From the NCBI GenBank assembly GCA_048938855.1, contig JBHLLT010000012.1, forward strand, positions 1 through 64,000: 64,000 nucleotides of DNA, given 5' to 3'. The number at the start of each line of letters is the position of its first letter. The first letter of the stretch is position 1. Both the position numbers and the translations under genes were made by a program. The notes beneath the pieces were generated by a model that saw only the letters and a program-made list of their open reading frames with translations, made no database searches and was not told the DNA's origin. Origin of the DNA: Promethearchaeota archaeon (lineage in GTDB: Archaea; Asgardarchaeota; Lokiarchaeia; Sigyniarchaeales; SOKP01). Positions 31,347 through 42,127 of the stretch are shown piece after piece.

Positions 31347-32501
31347 TTATATTTTTGGAGCAATAGCAGAATCTGGGTTAACTACTTTTTGAAGCATTTT
31401 AAATGCTTTTTGAGATGTTGAAAAAGTTTTAGCATTGTATTTTTTTATTATATCCTTGATTTCTTCATCAAAAATTCTTACGAACAACTCAATATGGGGA
31501 TAACGTAGATTCAATTTATAAGTAAGATAAATTGCCTCGTCAAATTCTGATTCTCGTTTCCAACAAATAAAAACTTGAGTCACTTCCTCTAAGTTTACAT
31601 GGGCTCGTAAATCACTTAAAAAACGGGCAAACTCATTGTACAAGTGTAATTTTTCATTTTTTACAAATTCAATACCACTATTAACATCATCAAAAAGATA
31701 GACTTCTCGATCTAGTTCTTGAGAAATATGATGCGCTATTCGATGAGTCAAACTATCTCTCCCAATTACAATTGCTTTACCTGCTTTATTTTTTGTCCAT
31801 TCGTGAATATTATCCATAGCCCATTTAGACGTTGAGAACGAATATGCTTTTAATGGGGGATTCTTAAGGTATTCTTGTACATGATCTTCAAACGCTCTAA
31901 CATAAATAGCACAATCTGGATTAATTTTGCGAATTTTTTCAGTACATATTATTGCGGTTCTTACATCATTAATATTAATAAAAACTTCCTTAGCATTTTT
32001 AGCATTTGCCCAATTGAGGTTCACTGTCTCAGTGGCATCTCCAATCACTATTGGACGCCCTGCATTAATTAAATCTTCTACTGCTTCTTCGTCATCCTCA
32101 ATAAGGCAAAATTGCTTTTTATTTTCAATACAATATTCTAAAATTCTCTCAGATAGATGATGATATCCAATTATTACAGCATGATTTCTTTTATGCGAAG
32201 CGAGAATTCTGCAAGTTACAACAGGATTATACTTTTCTAATAATTCTCCAATGATAAAACCAAAAACAATTACCTCTAATAATATCGGCCAAAGTAAAGC
32301 ATATAAATTTGCAAAATCACTTGCATCTGTGGGAGAACGTACAGTTAAAGAATATAAGAAAATGATCCCTATATTTTGACCAGATTCTGTAATAAAAAAG
32401 AATAGAAATCCACAAAACCAAAAAAGAAAGAGAAATATAAAAGCTAACTTGTATTGTTTGAGTTTGAGTCGGAATTCAATGAAAAAGTTTACTAATTTCA
32501 T
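31347..32501 (-). CDS. 2-TM channel-like protein with TrkA-N/RCK domains
   Basis: TM1 - pore-helix-like - TM2, then HAVIIGY, IGDATE, VRAF (RCK1) and a second RCK (AIVIGRD). Confidence 0.8.
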   Translation of the reverse strand: MKLVNFFIEFRLKLKQYKLAFIFLFLFWFCGFLFFFITESGQNIGIIFLYSLTVRSPTDASDFANLYALLWPILLEVIVFGFIIGELLEKYNPVVTCRILASHKRNHAVIIGYHHLSERILEYCIENKKQFCLIEDDEEAVEDLINAGRPIVIGDATETVNLNWANAKNAKEVFININDVRTAIICTEKIRKINPDCAIYVRAFEDHVQEYLKNPPLKAYSFSTSKWAMDNIHEWTKNKAGKAIVIGRDSLTHRIAHHISQELDREVYLFDDVNSGIEFVKNEKLHLYNEFARFLSDLRAHVNLEEVTQVFICWKRESEFDEAIYLTYKLNLRYPHIELFVRIFDEEIKDIIKKYNAKTFSTSQKAFKMLQKVVNPDSAIAPKI

Positions 32502-32553
32502 AACTTAAGATAAAACAATCTTGTATAAAAAAGATTTGATCTATTATTATAGT

Positions 32554-34398
32554 CTAACGAGAGTTATCAGTTTCTACAGTTACTTCTCCGTCAATTTCAA
32601 GTAATTTTGAGCCACATACCTCGCAATAAGCTGGTGTTCCCCCCATTATTTTTCTAACAAGTTCTACTGGCAAGTTTCCTTGACATTCAGGGCAATTTTG
32701 CGGATTAATTGAATTTTCAAATTCAGACATAATAGAGGGAGTCATATCCTCATCCTCAGCAAAGATATCCACTTTTAAAACAGTTAATTGCTCATCTTTA
32801 TTGCCAGTTAGAGTCAATAATAACCCTACAGAATGTTTACTAAAAGTCCCTTCGGCATAACCTTTGATGAATCCATGGAAGTTTCCCTCTGATACTTGTT
32901 TTTTAGTATCTATGATTGCAAAATTCTTCCTTTTTAAAAGTATAGATAACCTCTGATATAATTGATCAGCATTGTATGGAATTGTAAATTCTTGCCCAAT
33001 TTTTTTGAATGTAAGAAGATCTTTGGTGAGATTTTCAAAATCTTCATTTGACACTTTTTTTGGCCTTAATAGCCCACATATCATTCTAATCTCGTGTGGT
33101 TCTACATTGATGGTATCGATCTGATCTTTTTCATTAATAAAATTAACTACAGCATGAACAGTTCCCTTTATACAATCTTTTTTTGGCTTAAATACAAAAG
33201 TGGGACTTACAAATCCTCCACCTTTTGAAATTTTATGAAATTTTGCACTGTCAGGGGAAAATTGTGGATGTCCATCTACACGTGATAAAATCAGACTTTC
33301 CTCTGGATATGAAAGTATATTTATATTGATATTAGTGATATTAAATTTTCTGTTATTAATAACCTTGATTTTAAAGAAGTATTCACCTCCCTCAATCTGC
33401 CCGCCCCTAAGAACACGAATATCTTGGGATTTCATTTCTGGTTTAATGTGAAGTATTTTTGAATCTGAACTAATCTCCACTTGAGTTTTATTTGAAGTTT
33501 CAATAATTCTTTCTGTTTTGAGAGTTTGGGGTTCTGGTTTTGGAGTTACTTTACTTGGCATTTCAATGATATCTCCTTTATCACCTTTAACTAATTTGAA
33601 AAGAGTGATTTTATTTTTAGAAGCGGCAACTAAAAACATATTGTTTTCTTGTTCTGTAGAGATAGTGTATGCATCAAGACATTGTGTTTTTATCCCAATT
33701 TTATGGTTACCAATAACTTCTTTATTTAAATTAATAGCATTTAGGAAACCGTTTTTATCTCCCACAATTAAAATTGGTTGGTTATAAATGTTACAAAAAG
33801 TTAAGCATGTAGGTTGATACTCTAATTCAAAAACTAATTCTGAATCTATATCGTTTATTACATTAAGAATTTTCCCTGATTTAAGTAATATAAAGATTTT
33901 TTTTGTTATCTTATCAGAAAAATAGCCAATAGTGCAATCCATAATGGGTTCTGGGGCTTTAAATTCGAGAAATTTTTCTCCTTCATTATCCAGTCCAATT
34001 AATCGTTGATTTTCTAAACCAACTATTATTTCATCTCTAATATCATCTTTTAAATCCCCAGTTTCCATACAAATTACTGGAGAATTTAAGTTTGTCGACC
34101 AAATTGGATTTCCATTATTATCCATTACATAGATACTCCCATCTAATGAACCTGAGATTAATTCAATATTATTTTGTCTGCTAACAGATGCTATTTTAAA
34201 ACTTGTTATGGTCGAGGAAAATTCCGTAATAAAAACTTCATTTCCTTCAAGATCAAAAGCTTTTATTTCTGCACTAAATGAACAACCAATTATTTCAGGT
34301 TCTTGATCGCCTAAAAGATTTGCAATTATACAGGAATAGACATTTTTTTGAAATTGACGAACCCAAAGTGGTTGTAGTTTAATATATTGCAGTGTCAT
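32554..34398 (-). CDS. Beta-propeller (FG-GAP-like) + Ig/adaptin-ear-like + platform-like + Zn-ribbon protein
   Basis: Repeats ANLLGDQEPEIIGCS, ELISGSLDGSIYV, GDLKDDIRDEIIVG; beta-sandwich FKIKVINNRKFNITNI; LRPKKVSNEDF; CPEC...CEVC. Confidence 0.7.
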   Translation of the reverse strand: MTLQYIKLQPLWVRQFQKNVYSCIIANLLGDQEPEIIGCSFSAEIKAFDLEGNEVFITEFSSTITSFKIASVSRQNNIELISGSLDGSIYVMDNNGNPIWSTNLNSPVICMETGDLKDDIRDEIIVGLENQRLIGLDNEGEKFLEFKAPEPIMDCTIGYFSDKITKKIFILLKSGKILNVINDIDSELVFELEYQPTCLTFCNIYNQPILIVGDKNGFLNAINLNKEVIGNHKIGIKTQCLDAYTISTEQENNMFLVAASKNKITLFKLVKGDKGDIIEMPSKVTPKPEPQTLKTERIIETSNKTQVEISSDSKILHIKPEMKSQDIRVLRGGQIEGGEYFFKIKVINNRKFNITNININILSYPEESLILSRVDGHPQFSPDSAKFHKISKGGGFVSPTFVFKPKKDCIKGTVHAVVNFINEKDQIDTINVEPHEIRMICGLLRPKKVSNEDFENLTKDLLTFKKIGQEFTIPYNADQLYQRLSILLKRKNFAIIDTKKQVSEGNFHGFIKGYAEGTFSKHSVGLLLTLTGNKDEQLTVLKVDIFAEDEDMTPSIMSEFENSINPQNCPECQGNLPVELVRKIMGGTPAYCEVCGSKLLEIDGEVTVETDNSR

Positions 34399-34549
34399 GT
34401 CAGATCTTAATTTGAAAAATTCGATTTAATTTCAATATTATATAAATTGATTTTATCATAAAAATAAATCTCATAGATTAAATTACTATCCTATTACATC
34501 AATAATAAAAAAAAGAGAATTTAGAATAATTTTTTCAGTTTTCATATTA

Positions 34550-35011
34550 TTAAGGCTTTTCTTCGGCGTCTTCTTTGACTTTCTTTACTAATTTTTTAAA
34601 AGCTTGCGTTAAATTTCCTAATTCAGGGTCTTGTTCCTCCAATTCTTTATCAAAATCCGTATCTATCTCTTTAAAAGATACAGTTTTAAGATCATGGGTA
34701 CATAATTTTAATGCTATGTTTGTTAATTTATGGATCGGATTTACTATTGAATCAGCAAGTTTCAAGCCCACAAAAAGACTTATTACAATAATTTGCCATA
34801 GTGAGATAAATATAATTGCTATTTCTATCTCAAGAGTTTCAGTGATTATTGTCTGATCCTCCGGTGTAGCGCCAACAATATTGGCACCAATAATCTCATT
34901 AAATATTGCAGCTGTAATTGCAATACTCCCTAATGCAATAAAACAAACTACAACGAAGCTCAGAAGAATTTCTTGCCTAATTCCGAATTTTCTTTTTTTT
35001 TGTTGAGCCAT
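34550..35011 (-). CDS. 2-TM + HAMP domain protein with no output domain
   Basis: Two TM helices, IVNPIHKLTNIA...ELGNLTQAFKKLV HAMP pattern, then stop. Confidence 0.8.
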   Translation of the reverse strand: MAQQKKRKFGIRQEILLSFVVVCFIALGSIAITAAIFNEIIGANIVGATPEDQTIITETLEIEIAIIFISLWQIIVISLFVGLKLADSIVNPIHKLTNIALKLCTHDLKTVSFKEIDTDFDKELEEQDPELGNLTQAFKKLVKKVKEDAEEKP

Positions 35012-35013
35012 CT

Positions 35014-36738
35014 TTATCCCTCCTCCGGTACAAAACCTTCAATTTCTGATGAAGCCATAATTTCCTTCACTTTTGTAAAAGCTTCTGCAATTCGTTTTGA
35101 AACATTTTTTATAGAATAGATAGTAATATATTTACCATGTGGAGTTGCAGCAACCATTTGTGTCATTGTTCGATGAACTTTTTTTAGTTCTGGTCCAACA
35201 CCAATTAATATAAAATTGATGGGAGGTTCTATTTTTTCGATGTATTTTGCAACTTTGCGAGAATTATACTTTGTACTTTTATTATCTTCACCATCAGTAA
35301 GAGTTACAACCCATCTCTGACGTTCTTGAGATTCTTGCTCTGAGCGAGGTGATTTTTCCAATAAAATATCTATCGCATTGCCTATCGCATCATATAAACA
35401 AGTCTGATAAGGACTAGCCTCCATCGTTTTAAATATATTTGTAATTTGCGAAACATTGCCTTTTTTCTCTGTCAAATCAAGAAGTATATTTATCATAGAA
35501 TTAAAACCAAGGATTGCAATTCGATCTCCAATATTTATTGTTTCATTAAAAACTCCCAAAGCTCCTGTTCGAGCCGCTCCCATTTTATCAAATTGAGTCA
35601 TGCTTCCAGATTGATCAATTACAAAAACTACATCTTTTTTACGTACTAGTATTTCGTCTACTTTGGAAAGTTCAAGCTCTGCTTTATGGTATAGAGTTGT
35701 ATTATCTTGACTTTCATATAATTGTACCATTGCTTCAAGGATATTTTTCATTAAAGGATAATTTCCAAGGTTTTCTGCTAATTTCAAAGCATTTTTTAAA
35801 TGATCTTCTGCAATCTCAGGATTATTTTTTAACAAAGTTAGTCTCCCTAATTGAAACTCATCTTCTGCTAAACCTGAATTATTTTCCCATTTACTATCAA
35901 GTTTAAATGCCTCATCAAGTTGTTCTTGAGCAAGATTTAATTCATTTTTTAACATATATAATACTCCTATATTTCTATTTCTTGAAGCAATTCCCACTTC
36001 ATCTCCCAACTCATTATCTATTTCAAGAGCTTTGTTAAAATCCTCCATTGCTTCTTGCCATTGTTCTTCTGAAAGAAAAAGAAGAGCACGATTATTATAC
36101 CTAGAACTTAATGATCCAATATCTTCCTGTTCTTCACCAATTTTAATTGACTTATTATAACTTTCCTTTGCTTTATCATAATCTCCCCAATTGCGATAAA
36201 TGTTTCCAAGGTTATTTAAACACATTCCCTCCCCATGAAGATTTTTTGTTGTTTGAAATAACTCTAATGCAGCATTATAATTTCTGAATGCAAGGGTCAT
36301 ATTACCTTGATAATAACTTTTGTTTCCCAAACGCATTGTAACCAATAAACTCTGAAAAGATTGAGCAAGTACACCGATTTCATTTCTTCTCATTCTTCCA
36401 CTCATAGGAATTTCTTGAGTGAGATCTCCTTGAGATATTTGTTCTATTGAATTTGTTAAATCAATAATAGGAGATGTAATTCTTCGAGAGATGCCATTTA
36501 CAGCAAAAAAAATCACAATAGTGGTAATTATAGCAACAATAATAATTGTAATGATCAACGGGCTTTTTAATGTTTCAAGTGAGGTATACCCTAATCCAAT
36601 AAAATAGTCAATATTTGTTAATAATTGAAATGCTAAGAAAACTGTTAAAAGCATGAATGGAATTAAGATGCATGCAATCATAATTATAAAGAGCCTTTGT
36701 CGCAATGACCTTTTTTTTCTTATTTCTCTAACTTCCAT
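35014..36738 (-). CDS. 2-TM - HAMP - TPR repeats - vWA domain protein
   Basis: ITSPIIDLT...NEIGVLAQSF (HAMP); NNLGNIY/NNRALL/RNIGVLY TPRs; VFVIDQSGSM, TCLYDAI and LTDGEDN (complete MIDAS). Confidence 0.88.
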   Translation of the reverse strand: MEVREIRKKRSLRQRLFIIMIACILIPFMLLTVFLAFQLLTNIDYFIGLGYTSLETLKSPLIITIIIVAIITTIVIFFAVNGISRRITSPIIDLTNSIEQISQGDLTQEIPMSGRMRRNEIGVLAQSFQSLLVTMRLGNKSYYQGNMTLAFRNYNAALELFQTTKNLHGEGMCLNNLGNIYRNWGDYDKAKESYNKSIKIGEEQEDIGSLSSRYNNRALLFLSEEQWQEAMEDFNKALEIDNELGDEVGIASRNRNIGVLYMLKNELNLAQEQLDEAFKLDSKWENNSGLAEDEFQLGRLTLLKNNPEIAEDHLKNALKLAENLGNYPLMKNILEAMVQLYESQDNTTLYHKAELELSKVDEILVRKKDVVFVIDQSGSMTQFDKMGAARTGALGVFNETINIGDRIAILGFNSMINILLDLTEKKGNVSQITNIFKTMEASPYQTCLYDAIGNAIDILLEKSPRSEQESQERQRWVVTLTDGEDNKSTKYNSRKVAKYIEKIEPPINFILIGVGPELKKVHRTMTQMVAATPHGKYITIYSIKNVSKRIAEAFTKVKEIMASSEIEGFVPEEG

Positions 36739-36771
36739 TTTCTTCTTTCCCTCTTATTTTTCTTATAAAAA

Positions 36772-37491
36772 TCAAATTCCTTTATCAATACCTTCATATA
36801 TCAGAAATATTGATGTAAAAATAGAAGCTTTAACTATAGCTAAACCAATCAGTGGGAGATTAGAAACACCTGCATCAATAATTCCGAAAAGAGAGACAAA
36901 CATTACTCCAATACCCATTGAATATCTCCTCCATTTCACACTTTTGTTCTCTAAAGTTATTCCTGAATGAAGAATAGCAGGTCCCAGAATTACCATCATA
37001 ATTACCAACACCACCCCTAATAATGCTAATGCTGCCCCTTTAATTCCTGTTGACGGCAAACCTCCGGGTGATGCTTCCCAAGAAGTAAAAGCTGATGGAT
37101 TGGAATAAATCAAAACAGCGAAAATTAAACTCAATATTGCTACTATACTCGTAATTGGGATTTTATAACGACCGCTTTTAAATAAATCTGAGGCAATATA
37201 TGCCCAAATTGTTCCACCCAAAGCAGGCCCCCAAGCATATCCTAAAACCGCTATATTCGGACCTAATGGGGGAAATCCGAATACCATAAGTAAAAAACTT
37301 GCAGAGACCCCAAACCATGCATGAAAAACTGATAATAAACCAATTCCACTTAATATTAATCTTTTTTTAACTTTTATATCAGTTGCTTTTCTAGCATATT
37401 TAAAAATTAGGATAAAAGCTAAAATATAACCAGCAACAGTAATTTCTAGACCTGTAAGTCCATTTATTATATCAATATTTGGAAGAGCCAT
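36772..37491 (-). CDS. Seven-TM membrane protein of unknown function
   Basis: 239 aa with about 7 hydrophobic helices; GGGGTG SD; 33 nt upstream of the HAMP-TPR-vWA gene. Confidence 0.75.
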   Translation of the reverse strand: MALPNIDIINGLTGLEITVAGYILAFILIFKYARKATDIKVKKRLILSGIGLLSVFHAWFGVSASFLLMVFGFPPLGPNIAVLGYAWGPALGGTIWAYIASDLFKSGRYKIPITSIVAILSLIFAVLIYSNPSAFTSWEASPGGLPSTGIKGAALALLGVVLVIMMVILGPAILHSGITLENKSVKWRRYSMGIGVMFVSLFGIIDAGVSNLPLIGLAIVKASIFTSIFLIYEGIDKGI

Positions 37492-37601
37492 TTATGTTAA
37501 CACCCCTTATTTACATGAACATCTATAATTAAAATTTTTTTATTAATAATTTTTTTAAACTGCAACCTATATTTTGAAGAATTATTATATAAATTTGGTA
37601 C

Positions 37602-37830
37602 ATAGGTATTAGTGGCAAAGCAGAATATTTTGGTGGCAAAGTTCCCACAATTATGGCTAATTCTCCATTTTGGATGCAGAAAGTACTTAGAGATTATCAT
37701 CATAAAAAAAAAAATTTTGATCTAAGTGACAGTTTACATATTATTAATGGAGGTGGTGGCTGGGATGGCACTTAAAGTCGTATTAAGTTGGGACATCATG
37801 TAAATAAGTCAGATTTTGCTGAACATTTGA
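37602..37830 (+). pseudogene. Decayed partial copy of the LuxE-like gene (matches about 41483-41731)
   Basis: TTCCCACAATTATGGCTAATTCTCCATT, TTTTGATCTAAGTGA, TGGAGGTGGTGG.TGGGATGGCA and TTAAGTTGGGACATCATGTAAATAAG are shared with 41541-41710, with indels. Confidence 0.85.
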
Positions 37831-40760: not shown

Positions 40761-40948
40761 TGAGAATCCTCTAGAAAAATATAATCCTATATTCAATTCA
40801 ATTAATCAAGTAATATAAATAAGTATCACATTTTTTCTCCTAGGACTTTCAAATTTGTCTATAAATGAGAAGAATAAAATATTAAATCCTTTAGTGTTTA
40901 ATAATAACTTGAAATTAGAAATTTAACATTTATTGATTGCTCTTACTA

Positions 40949-42127
40949 ATGGTTCTAGACGATATTTCTCATATTATAAAAGAAACTGCAGAAGATTGCC
41001 CAATTTATAAAAAGTTATGCGAAAAGGTTGAGTATGACTTTGATACAACATTAAAAGAATCTAATTTAGGTGAAATTCCATATATACCTTGGAATTTCTT
41101 TAAACTTTCAAATTATAAATTTAGAGACCTATTAAGAGGTAATTCTTTCGAAAATTTAAAATATTGGATGGAGTCTTCCTCTACATGTGGAGATCCTAGT
41201 ATTGTTGGAAGACTTGAAGGTGATATTGAAGTTTTAAAGGCTAATTATAACATAGTTTTCAATTCTTTTTCATGTAAAGAAGAAGTTAATAATCTTATTT
41301 TATTTGCCCCCGGAATGCGAATCATTAATAAAATAAGACACAATTTTTACAAAAAGGACGCATTTCTCCTATATAAAAGTATAGTTGATATATGGGAAGG
41401 GAAGCATATCAATTATCTATTACAATTTTTTTTGGGGAGAACAATTTGGAAAATGATGACAACCTTTAAAGCTCGAGCAGTGATTGGTATAAATGGTAAA
41501 TTGTTAAAAGACGAATTAAATCGAGTTGAAAGAGACAAACTTCCCACAATTATGGCTAATTCTCCATTGTGGATGCACAAAATACTCAAAGATTATCATA
41601 TTAAAGAAAAAAGAACTTTTGATCTAAGTGATAGTCTATATATCATTACTGGAGGTGGTGGTTGGGATGGCATTAAAGGTCGTGTTAAGTTGGGACATCA
41701 TGTAAATAAGCCAGATTTTGTTAAACAAATGTGTGATATGTTTAATATAACTCCAGATAAATTTTGTGATAATTTTGCAGCTACAGAAAGCCCAATGGCA
41801 TGCGGGGGTCATTGGTCAAAGTACTATAATGATTTCTTACTTCATGTTAATAAGGATCAAGGTCGGATTGTGGTCCGAGATATTCAAACATCAGAGCCTA
41901 TTAAAAAAACAGGAGAACCTGGTCTCTTAGAATTGATTACGCCTTATGGAGTAGAAAGTTATGCTGGAGTATCGGTTCTGCTAGATGATATTGTTCAAGT
42001 AGAAAATTGGGAAAGATGCCCTGAATGTGGTCGTGAAGGGACGATTTTTAGGGTATTAGGTCGTTTAACTCCATCTATTGGAAAGGGGTGCAGTTCATTA
42101 TTTTCACTTGATGCATATAATTTGTAA
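40949..42127 (+). CDS. LuxE-like acyl-protein synthetase (LuxE/PaaK-type adenylating family)
   Basis: SSSTCGDPS P-loop, TGGGGWDG, PGLLELITPY, SVLLDD, FRVLGR and C-terminal KGCS. TTG 40937 is an alternative start. Confidence 0.75.
   Translation: MVLDDISHIIKETAEDCPIYKKLCEKVEYDFDTTLKESNLGEIPYIPWNFFKLSNYKFRDLLRGNSFENLKYWMESSSTCGDPSIVGRLEGDIEVLKANYNIVFNSFSCKEEVNNLILFAPGMRIINKIRHNFYKKDAFLLYKSIVDIWEGKHINYLLQFFLGRTIWKMMTTFKARAVIGINGKLLKDELNRVERDKLPTIMANSPLWMHKILKDYHIKEKRTFDLSDSLYIITGGGGWDGIKGRVKLGHHVNKPDFVKQMCDMFNITPDKFCDNFAATESPMACGGHWSKYYNDFLLHVNKDQGRIVVRDIQTSEPIKKTGEPGLLELITPYGVESYAGVSVLLDDIVQVENWERCPECGREGTIFRVLGRLTPSIGKGCSSLFSLDAYNL

Follow-up and report, generated by a model that had tools for sequence, protein, structure and literature searches.

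A four-gene cassette of an Asgard archaeon as a candidate transmembrane receptor system without enzymatic output

To our knowledge, the prokaryotic transmembrane signalling systems characterised so far have, with few exceptions, an enzyme (kinase, cyclase, phosphatase) or a chemotaxis scaffold as their end point. How could a signal be passed on at a locus where HAMP proteins of the membrane are encoded together with none of these? The question is raised by a 64,000-nucleotide (nt) stretch of DNA, hereafter called the window (positions 1 to 64,000 of contig JBHLLT010000012.1, assembly GCA_048938855.1), from a Promethearchaeota archaeon, that is, from the Asgard archaea, which are the closest prokaryotic relatives of eukaryotes. 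Five genes of the minus strand are concerned. Gene A (36772-37491; 239 amino acids (aa)) encodes a protein with seven predicted transmembrane (TM) segments (7TM) and no Pfam family; gene B (35014-36738; 574 aa) combines two TM segments (2TM), a HAMP domain, tetratricopeptide repeats (TPR) and a von Willebrand factor A (vWA) domain; gene C (34550-35011; 153 aa) has two TM segments and a HAMP domain only; gene D (32554-34398; 614 aa) encodes a soluble protein with a propeller, an appendage-like part and a zinc ribbon; and gene E (31347-32501; 384 aa) has two TM segments, a pore-like segment without GYG, and an RCK (TrkA_N) domain. Genes A-D are considered here, with moderate confidence, as a four-gene cassette representing a derived form of a transmembrane receptor system that is peculiar to Asgard archaea and has no enzymatic output, E lying outside it. 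The widespread form of this system comprises a dCache-HAMP-TPR-vWA receptor and a paralogous, output-less dCache-HAMP co-receptor, often with a propeller/zinc-ribbon protein and often with an arginine decarboxylase gene.

A preliminary description of the window, made from the sequence alone, had presented the five genes as a co-directional minus-strand group with gaps of 33, 2, 151 and 52 nt and without kinase, cyclase or methyl-accepting chemotaxis protein (MCP) output. The open reading frame (ORF) listing reproduces strand and gaps exactly, and searches with the Pfam and NCBIfam models found no HisKA/HATPase, GGDEF, cyclase, MCPsignal, PP2C, kinase or response-regulator/receiver domain in genes A-E. 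Five genes on the same strand are by themselves not significant (chance of about 1 in 16), and significance is given to the cluster because it is conserved across genomes, not because of the shared strand. The composition of the window is AT-rich (about 30% G+C). A scan for sigma-70 promoters and intrinsic terminators, which is ill-suited to archaea, remained at chance level. The PADLOC scan returned generic TPR matches and nothing else, and a reading of the locus as a defence system was rejected on this basis.

Conservation was assessed in 121 species genomes of the order, where B orthologs were retained at E<1e-50, and in 301 genomes of the phylum. The order A-B-C-D is the same in the genus and in the sister genus, according to tblastn searches of the window proteins against contigs of relatives. 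B is present in 22/121 genomes of the order, and in 20 of these 22 (Lokiarchaeales-order) D is found within 3 kb on the same strand; in the remaining two the locus is cut by contig ends. The B-C-D trio was also found on metagenome contigs with unrelated flanks, consisting either of GH2 and pyruvoyl arginine decarboxylase genes or of thiolase and ABC transporter genes. Phylum-wide, B is present in 95/301 genomes (59/76 in one other family). C comes directly after B in all 12 distant Asgard loci examined. Four of these have a D-like propeller gene upstream, in the same orientation, and one has it in convergent orientation, none being seen in seven; D is accordingly downstream, upstream or convergent by lineage, which makes three gene orders. 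Homologs of B (best 120 matches) and of D were found only in metagenome-assembled genomes labelled Lokiarchaeota, Promethearchaeota or other Asgard, under annotations such as “hypothetical” or “TPR repeat protein”, and outside Asgard the similarity to bacterial and eukaryotic proteins is limited to generic TPR matches. As far as these searches reach, A-D is one conserved Asgard-only unit. The synteny check proposed in the preliminary description thus gave a positive answer, since A-D co-occur and adjoin across divergent genomes and flanks, and the propeller protein is indeed a conserved partner of the HAMP proteins, adjoining B-C in 20 of the 22 genomes. A closed 6.0-Mb genome of a sister family carries a dCache-type B-C-D trio (L078; G055:C1:2560000-2576000), and there a 358-aa GTPase-like ORF, encoded on the strand of D, lies about 1.3 kb past it, the two being separated by an ORF of the other strand.

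These data bear on the simplest alternative, namely that no dedicated signalling exists and that the cluster is accidental or structural, for instance a set of Bat-like vWA/TPR scaffolds or mobile unrelated cargo. The indel-like and patchy occurrence of the cassette, a weak match to the NCBIfam BatC TPR model (21.9 bits for a cutoff of 175) and the chance-level result of the sigma-70 and terminator scans would suit such an explanation. Against it stand the gene order and spacing, which are kept from 33% to 87% identity across families and between unrelated flanks, the existence of an A-B gene fusion, the lack of a MoxR or DUF58 partner nearby (typical of Bat operons) and the PADLOC result, so that this explanation is regarded as extremely improbable.

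In B, TM1 (36622-36690, residues 17-39) and TM2 (36499-36564, residues 59-80), both placed by hydropathy, are directly followed by the HAMP domain (36343-36492, residues 83-132; Pfam E 3e-9), which runs straight into the first helix of the TPR array (35683-36330, residues 137 to about 350; Pfam E 7e-22). The repeats are closest to those of LGN/Pins and of kinesin light chain. Then comes the vWA domain (35125-35634, residues 369-538; Pfam E 1e-12) with the DxSxS motif (35602-35616) of its metal ion-dependent adhesion site (MIDAS). The MIDAS residues D375, S377, S379, T446 and D482 do not vary among 28 orthologs with identities as low as 33%, and the acidic C-terminal tail IMASSEIEGFxPEE (35017-35061) is likewise invariant across the same 28 orthologs. 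In C, TM1 (34901-34969, residues 15-37) and TM2 (34757-34822, residues 64-85) were also placed by hydropathy, and HAMP lies at 34574-34756: its Pfam match is weak (E 0.25), but the motifs are canonical (the proline of the first amphipathic segment, AS1, and E-L-G-x-L-x-x-A-F in the second, AS2), NCBIfam sensor-kinase N-terminal models match C at 2e-6, and long relatives of C match HAMP at 1e-4. All these features are on the minus strand. The picture given earlier of two HAMP proteins with almost no extracellular loop, one stopping after its HAMP domain and the other carrying TPRs and a MIDAS-intact vWA, is borne out by the domain and motif calls, by the end of C just after AS2 and by outer loops of about 20-25 residues by hydropathy.

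B and C are closely spaced in every locus seen, with 2-14 nt between them; in the window, C starts 2 nt past the B stop, and a Shine-Dalgarno-like GGAGGAGGG is located within the end of B. The sensor half of B aligns collinearly with the long form of C, its paralog, at 22% identity across some 500 residues (E 2e-17). Because of this paralogy and of the invariable tight adjacency, B and C are proposed to work as a hetero-oligomer.

The short B and C of the window differ from their distant relatives (about 850-990 aa for B and 470-550 aa for C), which each have a dCache_1 domain between the TM helices where the window proteins have none. In a maximum-likelihood tree of the TPR-vWA region, the short B and a 7TM-fused form constitute a single clade (support 99/96) nested among the dCache forms, which suggests that the clade of the window lost dCache once, in both B and C, and gained A. 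The fused form is a single 806-aa ORF on a metagenome contig (L030), in which the A part (43% identity, residues 1-237) and the B part (53% identity, residues 7-572) are in frame and a short C comes next; a second fused cluster has 808 aa. Orthologs of A (E<1e-60) are restricted to genomes with the short B, always directly upstream of it, and genomes with dCache forms contain distant A paralogs only. By hydropathy and the positive-inside rule, A is predicted to have its N-terminus outside and its C-terminus inside, and the N-terminus of B is also inside, topologies that are compatible with the fusion. Because of the fusion, the complementary distribution of A and dCache and the compatible topology, A is most likely a replacement input module for the lost dCache. 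These three observations all trace to one evolutionary event and were therefore counted as one piece of evidence. The role of receptor that the preliminary description gave to the 7TM protein is in line with the fusion and with the occurrence of A orthologs only where B and C are without dCache.

A itself belongs to a large family, which forms 22 clusters at 50% identity in a library of 1.8 billion proteins and is present in 116/121 genomes of the order, with up to 22 copies per genome. The family alignment displays a GGLPD motif in an outer loop, an invariant Asp in TM6 and Arg/Lys in TM7. No Pfam match to the family was obtained at E<=1, save a stray one to HisKA_7TM. Two known classes were considered and rejected. 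The length of 239 aa and the lysine of TM7 had prompted a comparison with sensory rhodopsins, but A has no Bac_rhodopsin or heliorhodopsin signature, and the basic residue of TM7, against an assignment to microbial rhodopsins, is lysine in close orthologs only and arginine in most family members. As to HisKA_7TM (PF16927) and 7TMR-DISM (PF07695), only 1 of 18 family members matches HisKA_7TM, below threshold (E 0.0045), and no such module was found across the whole genome at E<=1. An Atlas neighbour of A (score 0.88), of whose members only 10% carry HisKA_7TM, was kept as a lead only. Other members of the family show particular surroundings. Three of the seven other A-family paralogs in the genome of the window (G000) adjoin small GTPase genes of the Arf/Ras/Roc type (C6:18396-19919, L065; C6:113806-115325, L066; C41:93748-95621, L068), and one 7TM-GTPase pair is kept in eight genomes of the genus. 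A general partnership of the family with small GTPases was rejected, as no GTPase gene occurs within 3 kb at any of the 20 paralog loci surveyed in other genera (0/20); the association is either confined to this lineage or coincidental, and does not characterise the family in general. In other genera of the same taxonomic family, A-type 7TM genes are often arranged in tandem pairs (L082, L085, L089, L091, L048, L064).

The fourth gene of the cassette, D, was modelled with AlphaFold2 (AF2), at full length (mean predicted local distance difference test score, pLDDT, of 75.6) and separately for its C-terminal half. On the minus strand, the model gives a beta-propeller (33574-34398, residues 1-275, 24 predicted strands), a disordered linker (33427-33558), a GAE-like beta-sandwich (33079-33420, residues 327-440) and an alpha/beta platform (32758-33051, residues 450-547), and the protein ends with a CxxC...CxxC zinc ribbon (32605-32700) whose four cysteines are invariant or nearly so. 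Propeller and adaptin-type appendage are a pair of folds found in eukaryotic cargo adaptors, and the preliminary description had called D a BBSome-like propeller protein. At the level of folds this is partly upheld. In the AF2 model, the domain order propeller, GAE sandwich, platform is that of the BBS2/7/9 type, and whole-chain Foldseek searches rank BBS9 first (E 1.6e-17), with BBS2 and BBS7 (range 1.6e-17 to 2e-14), propeller-only matches being at about 1e-10. For the C-terminal half, the first Foldseek match is the AP2 alpha-appendage (about 250 columns over both subdomains, E 1.3e-8), followed by the gamma-COP and beta2 appendages and BBS9; VIA-align ranks the GAE domain of BBS9 first (Z 11.9, root-mean-square deviation (rmsd) 2.2 A over 100 residues). 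In the Foldseek comparison, the bipartite arrangement of an immunoglobulin (Ig)-like sandwich and a TBP-like platform corresponds to that of adaptin and COPI appendages, with TM-scores that are low (about 0.3) owing to a differing predicted inter-domain angle.

Other results set D apart from BBSome subunits. The Pfam matches of its propeller to BBS7, BBS2_Mid and Itfg2 are all sub-threshold (22.3 bits for BBS, with a cutoff of 27), and taken alone the propeller is generic (VIA-align Z about 23 to WD40 and NHL propellers), with the lowest rmsd to six-bladed NHL propellers; according to the model it most likely has six blades. The BBSome hallmarks of seven blades, a coiled coil, a C-terminal helical domain and sequence-level family membership were not found in D, and no other BBSome-like gene, nor any ESCRT or Arl6-like gene, was found near the locus. 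The likeness stands for the order of the folds and for the top structural matches, and fails for the blades, the C-terminal domains and the family membership.

The appendage part of D has relatives of its own. Its C-terminal half (residues about 310-600) has many paralogs inside proteins of 700-1400 aa of the order, and two appendage-type paralogs are tandem genes in G000 (C34:335123-338386). These paralogs may be the Asgard appendage multidomain proteins described together with ESCRT components (PMC11188069). Archaeal adaptin-appendage domains, including those of Asgard multidomain proteins, were described by Makarova et al. 2024 (PMC11188069), as were haloarchaeal propeller+Ig proteins and a methanogen appendage+Zn-ribbon protein. 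D is a new member of this archaeal set of appendage proteins, and what is new about it is the link with a HAMP receptor. Short D orthologs (355-397 aa) keep the propeller and the zinc ribbon without the appendage; at one such locus (L073; G112:C79), where D has about 355 aa and no appendage pair, E is convergent. No fused B-D or longer D form was found among proteins of 1076-3070 aa, which is weak evidence.

From these elements, the following mechanism is proposed for A-D. The 7TM protein A would sense a membrane or extracellular cue and would act on the 2TM-HAMP parts of B and C by helix-helix contacts within the membrane, as the fusion and the complementary distribution of A and dCache suggest; such lateral signalling to TM-HAMP proteins is drawn by analogy with sensory rhodopsins and their Htr transducers. 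B and C, presumably as a hetero-oligomer, would transmit the HAMP switch into the TPR solenoid and the MIDAS vWA domain of B, and this may alter the choice of the cytoplasmic protein that is retained at the membrane. D is the best candidate for such a partner or adaptor of the TPR/vWA arm, as indicated by its conserved neighbourhood in three gene orders. There is a precedent in Sulfolobus, where the zinc ribbon/zinc finger of ArnA docks on the vWA protein ArnB (PMC12852372). In a complex prediction made with alignments, B(135-574) and D(1-290) scored 0.41 for a control of 0.28, under the required margin, and as the appendage and zinc ribbon of D were outside the construct, the result was used neither for nor against the proposal.

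The same parts could also work in the opposite direction. D could be a zinc-ribbon protein that regulates transcription or some other soluble machine, held inactive by the TPR/vWA arm of B and freed on signal, in the manner of membrane anti-sigma systems or of switches of the ArnA/ArnB type. The zinc ribbon is, besides the propeller, the most widely kept part of D, being retained by the short orthologs that have no appendage, and the binding of the ArnA zinc finger to ArnB (PMC12852372) would fit as well. D, however, has no DNA-binding domain in Pfam searches, appendage domains are known as protein-interaction hubs (PMC11188069), and recruitment and release are indistinguishable from sequence alone. 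Sequestration of this kind is considered distinctly unlikely.

The surroundings of the dCache forms suggest another function. A pyridoxal phosphate (PLP)-dependent Orn/Arg decarboxylase gene (SpeA-like, 606-639 aa) directly follows C in 7/8 distant loci tested, in three families (L106, L107, L109, L113, L114, L115, L117), and is also found in L031 and L032, and a pyruvoyl arginine decarboxylase gene follows D in L023-L025. Domains of the dCache_1 family commonly bind amino acids and amines, and the dCache forms are probably tied to amine or polyamine metabolism. B-C(-D) could then be a sensor of amines or amino acids that governs both arginine decarboxylase and the synthesis of polyamines, for instance through docking or release of the enzyme on TPR/vWA, and the window would have kept the output and lost the gene linkage. 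In the clade of the window, however, no decarboxylase is adjacent to the cassette and the decarboxylase genes of G000 are on other contigs; dCache is lost in the window forms, so that the logic of the ligand need not carry over; and at loci of two families (f1, f2) the neighbours are different, namely thiolase, GH2 and ABC transporter genes. For the window, metabolic control is a possible but unlikely explanation.

The most far-reaching interpretation is that the locus represents a phylum-wide Asgard class of receptors in which a HAMP-gated TPR-vWA arm recruits a propeller/appendage protein on signal, a forerunner of the BBSome- or AP-type recruitment to 7TM and other receptors, with A-D as its 7TM-coupled version. 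This is held to be quite unlikely. The related claim of the preliminary description, that the genes build a eukaryote-like scaffold pathway, contains a correct part, as the docking domains are non-enzymatic and the fold of D is appendage/BBS-like. It is overstated because propeller+Ig and appendage+Zn-ribbon proteins are already known in archaea, and the arginine decarboxylase gene found beside the module in the majority of other Asgard lineages speaks more for metabolic sensing than for vesicle coats.

Several points weigh against the favoured interpretation of A-D as one receptor cassette. The replacement of dCache by the 7TM protein is a single evolutionary event. The A family is large and its members are mostly not beside HAMP genes, so a more general membrane role for A could be envisaged. 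An adjacent D is missing from the fusion locus L030 and from L032, and none was seen at seven of the 12 distant loci. Occurrence is patchy (22/121 genomes), and genomes that are related do not count as independent samples. The GAE-type sandwich of D is poorly separated from generic Ig-like folds (Z 9-11), and its propeller is apparently six-bladed, BBS propellers being seven-bladed. Finally, D may be under its own promoter and transcribed separately: the C-D spacer (34399-34549, minus strand, 151 nt, AT-rich) has a T-run just past the C stop and a TATA-like TTTATATA about 40-47 nt before the ATG of D, and C and D are 53-159 nt apart at every locus seen, as against 2-14 nt for B-C.

The remaining gene, E, was part of the pathway in the preliminary description, where it was an atypical RCK channel serving, alone or with D, as output of the HAMP/vWA system. 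It is atypical indeed: its TrkA_N match is clear (Pfam E 1e-18), and the filter position reads TVRSP in place of TVGYG. Among nine orthologs the motif is TV(R/K/G/N)xP, variable at the third and fourth positions, and E may differ from K+ channels in ion selectivity or may not conduct at all. Its membership in the pathway is another matter. E orthologs are present in 81/121 genomes of the order (44-80% identity), the module in 22/121. In two genomes of the genus without A-D (G008, G017), E has the flanking genes that it has in the window: on one side those of an Fe-S protein and an Lrp regulator, on the other a methyltransferase and/or APH-family gene. Because E holds this backbone position in genomes without the module, the cassette is seen as an insertion beside a pre-existing E, and E was judged to be a neighbouring backbone gene, not a cassette member. 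In favour of a five-gene pathway, the D-E gap is just 52 nt and E adjoins the cassette in three orientations (same strand in the window, G044 and G021; convergent in G112; divergent from A in G016). Each orientation is, however, explicable by one inversion keeping the neighbours, E is on another contig than the cassette in G056 and absent from the 20 kb examined around the G013 locus, and it never adjoins dCache forms. A role of E as output is therefore very unlikely, and the channel was removed from the proposed pathway.

At the other edge of the cassette, a direct repeat of about 190 nt (88% identity) was observed at 37637-37825 and 41536-41727. The copy near gene A is an internal piece of a LuxE-like gene (40937-42127), copied right upstream of A; an ORF of 68 aa (37497-37703) overlaps this remnant, and the two copies bracket APH, methyltransferase and NHL genes. 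The repeat is probably a recombination scar at the cassette edge.

No published description of the module was found in the literature on Asgard HAMP/vWA/TPR proteins or on the Asgard BBSome. Its interest lies in ending with generic protein-docking domains instead of an enzyme or a chemotaxis scaffold. If the receptor truly controls the location of D, the module would be a tractable model for the origin of receptor-to-adaptor coupling, and the exchange of inputs (dCache, split 7TM, fused 7TM) offers a natural comparison set for driving HAMP from within the membrane. Even a conservative reading gives a role both to a family of HAMP-TPR-vWA proteins and to an extensive Asgard family of 7TM proteins that had no annotation.

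Among known systems, the input side of the cassette can be compared with the haloarchaeal pairs of sensory rhodopsins and transducers (SRII/HtrII, SRI/HtrI), in which a separate 7TM protein lies beside a 2TM-HAMP transducer with minimal outer loop, with the in-membrane signalling by helix contacts that is proposed here. Unlike in SRII/HtrII, A is no rhodopsin, B ends in TPR-vWA and not in an MCP domain, CheA and CheW are missing, and there is an extra HAMP-only subunit (C). The ancestral B and C share the TM-dCache_1-TM-HAMP input half of dCache_1-HAMP receptors (PctA/B/C chemoreceptors, Cache sensor kinases), and the output of B, as in MCPs, is a protein-docking module and not an enzyme. The differences with the dCache_1-HAMP receptors are the TPR array and MIDAS vWA as output, the paired output-less paralog C and, in the window proteins, the lack of dCache. 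E, considered separately, resembles the RCK-gated K+ channels MthK and Kch by its two TM helices, pore-helix-like segment and TrkA_N/RCK domain, and differs from them by TV(R/K/G/N)xP, variable among orthologs, in place of TVGYG.

On the output side, ArnA/ArnB of Sulfolobus (PMC12852372) is similar in that an archaeal cytoplasmic vWA domain and a zinc-ribbon partner encoded next door make protein-protein contacts. ArnB is soluble, with its vWA domain followed by a beta-sandwich and a helical bundle, whereas the vWA domain of B is part of a membrane-bound HAMP receptor; the Arn switch operates through phosphorylation by ArnC and an FHA domain is found in ArnA, whereas the window cassette is without FHA domain, kinase or phosphatase. 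The Bat (Bacteroides aerotolerance) systems also encode membrane-anchored vWA and TPR proteins in a row, but they have no HAMP domain, no MoxR ATPase/DUF58 gene is present at the locus, and the likeness amounts to a sub-threshold TPR match only. D, finally, shares with BBS2/BBS7/BBS9 and with the adaptin/COPI appendages, which are its best fold matches, the order of propeller, linker, GAE-like sandwich and platform. It differs from BBSome subunits by an identity of only 10-15%, by a propeller of probably six blades, by a zinc ribbon where those have their C-terminal helical domain and by the lack of a coiled coil, and from BBSome and appendage proteins altogether by an appendage that is dispensable, being missing from the short orthologs.

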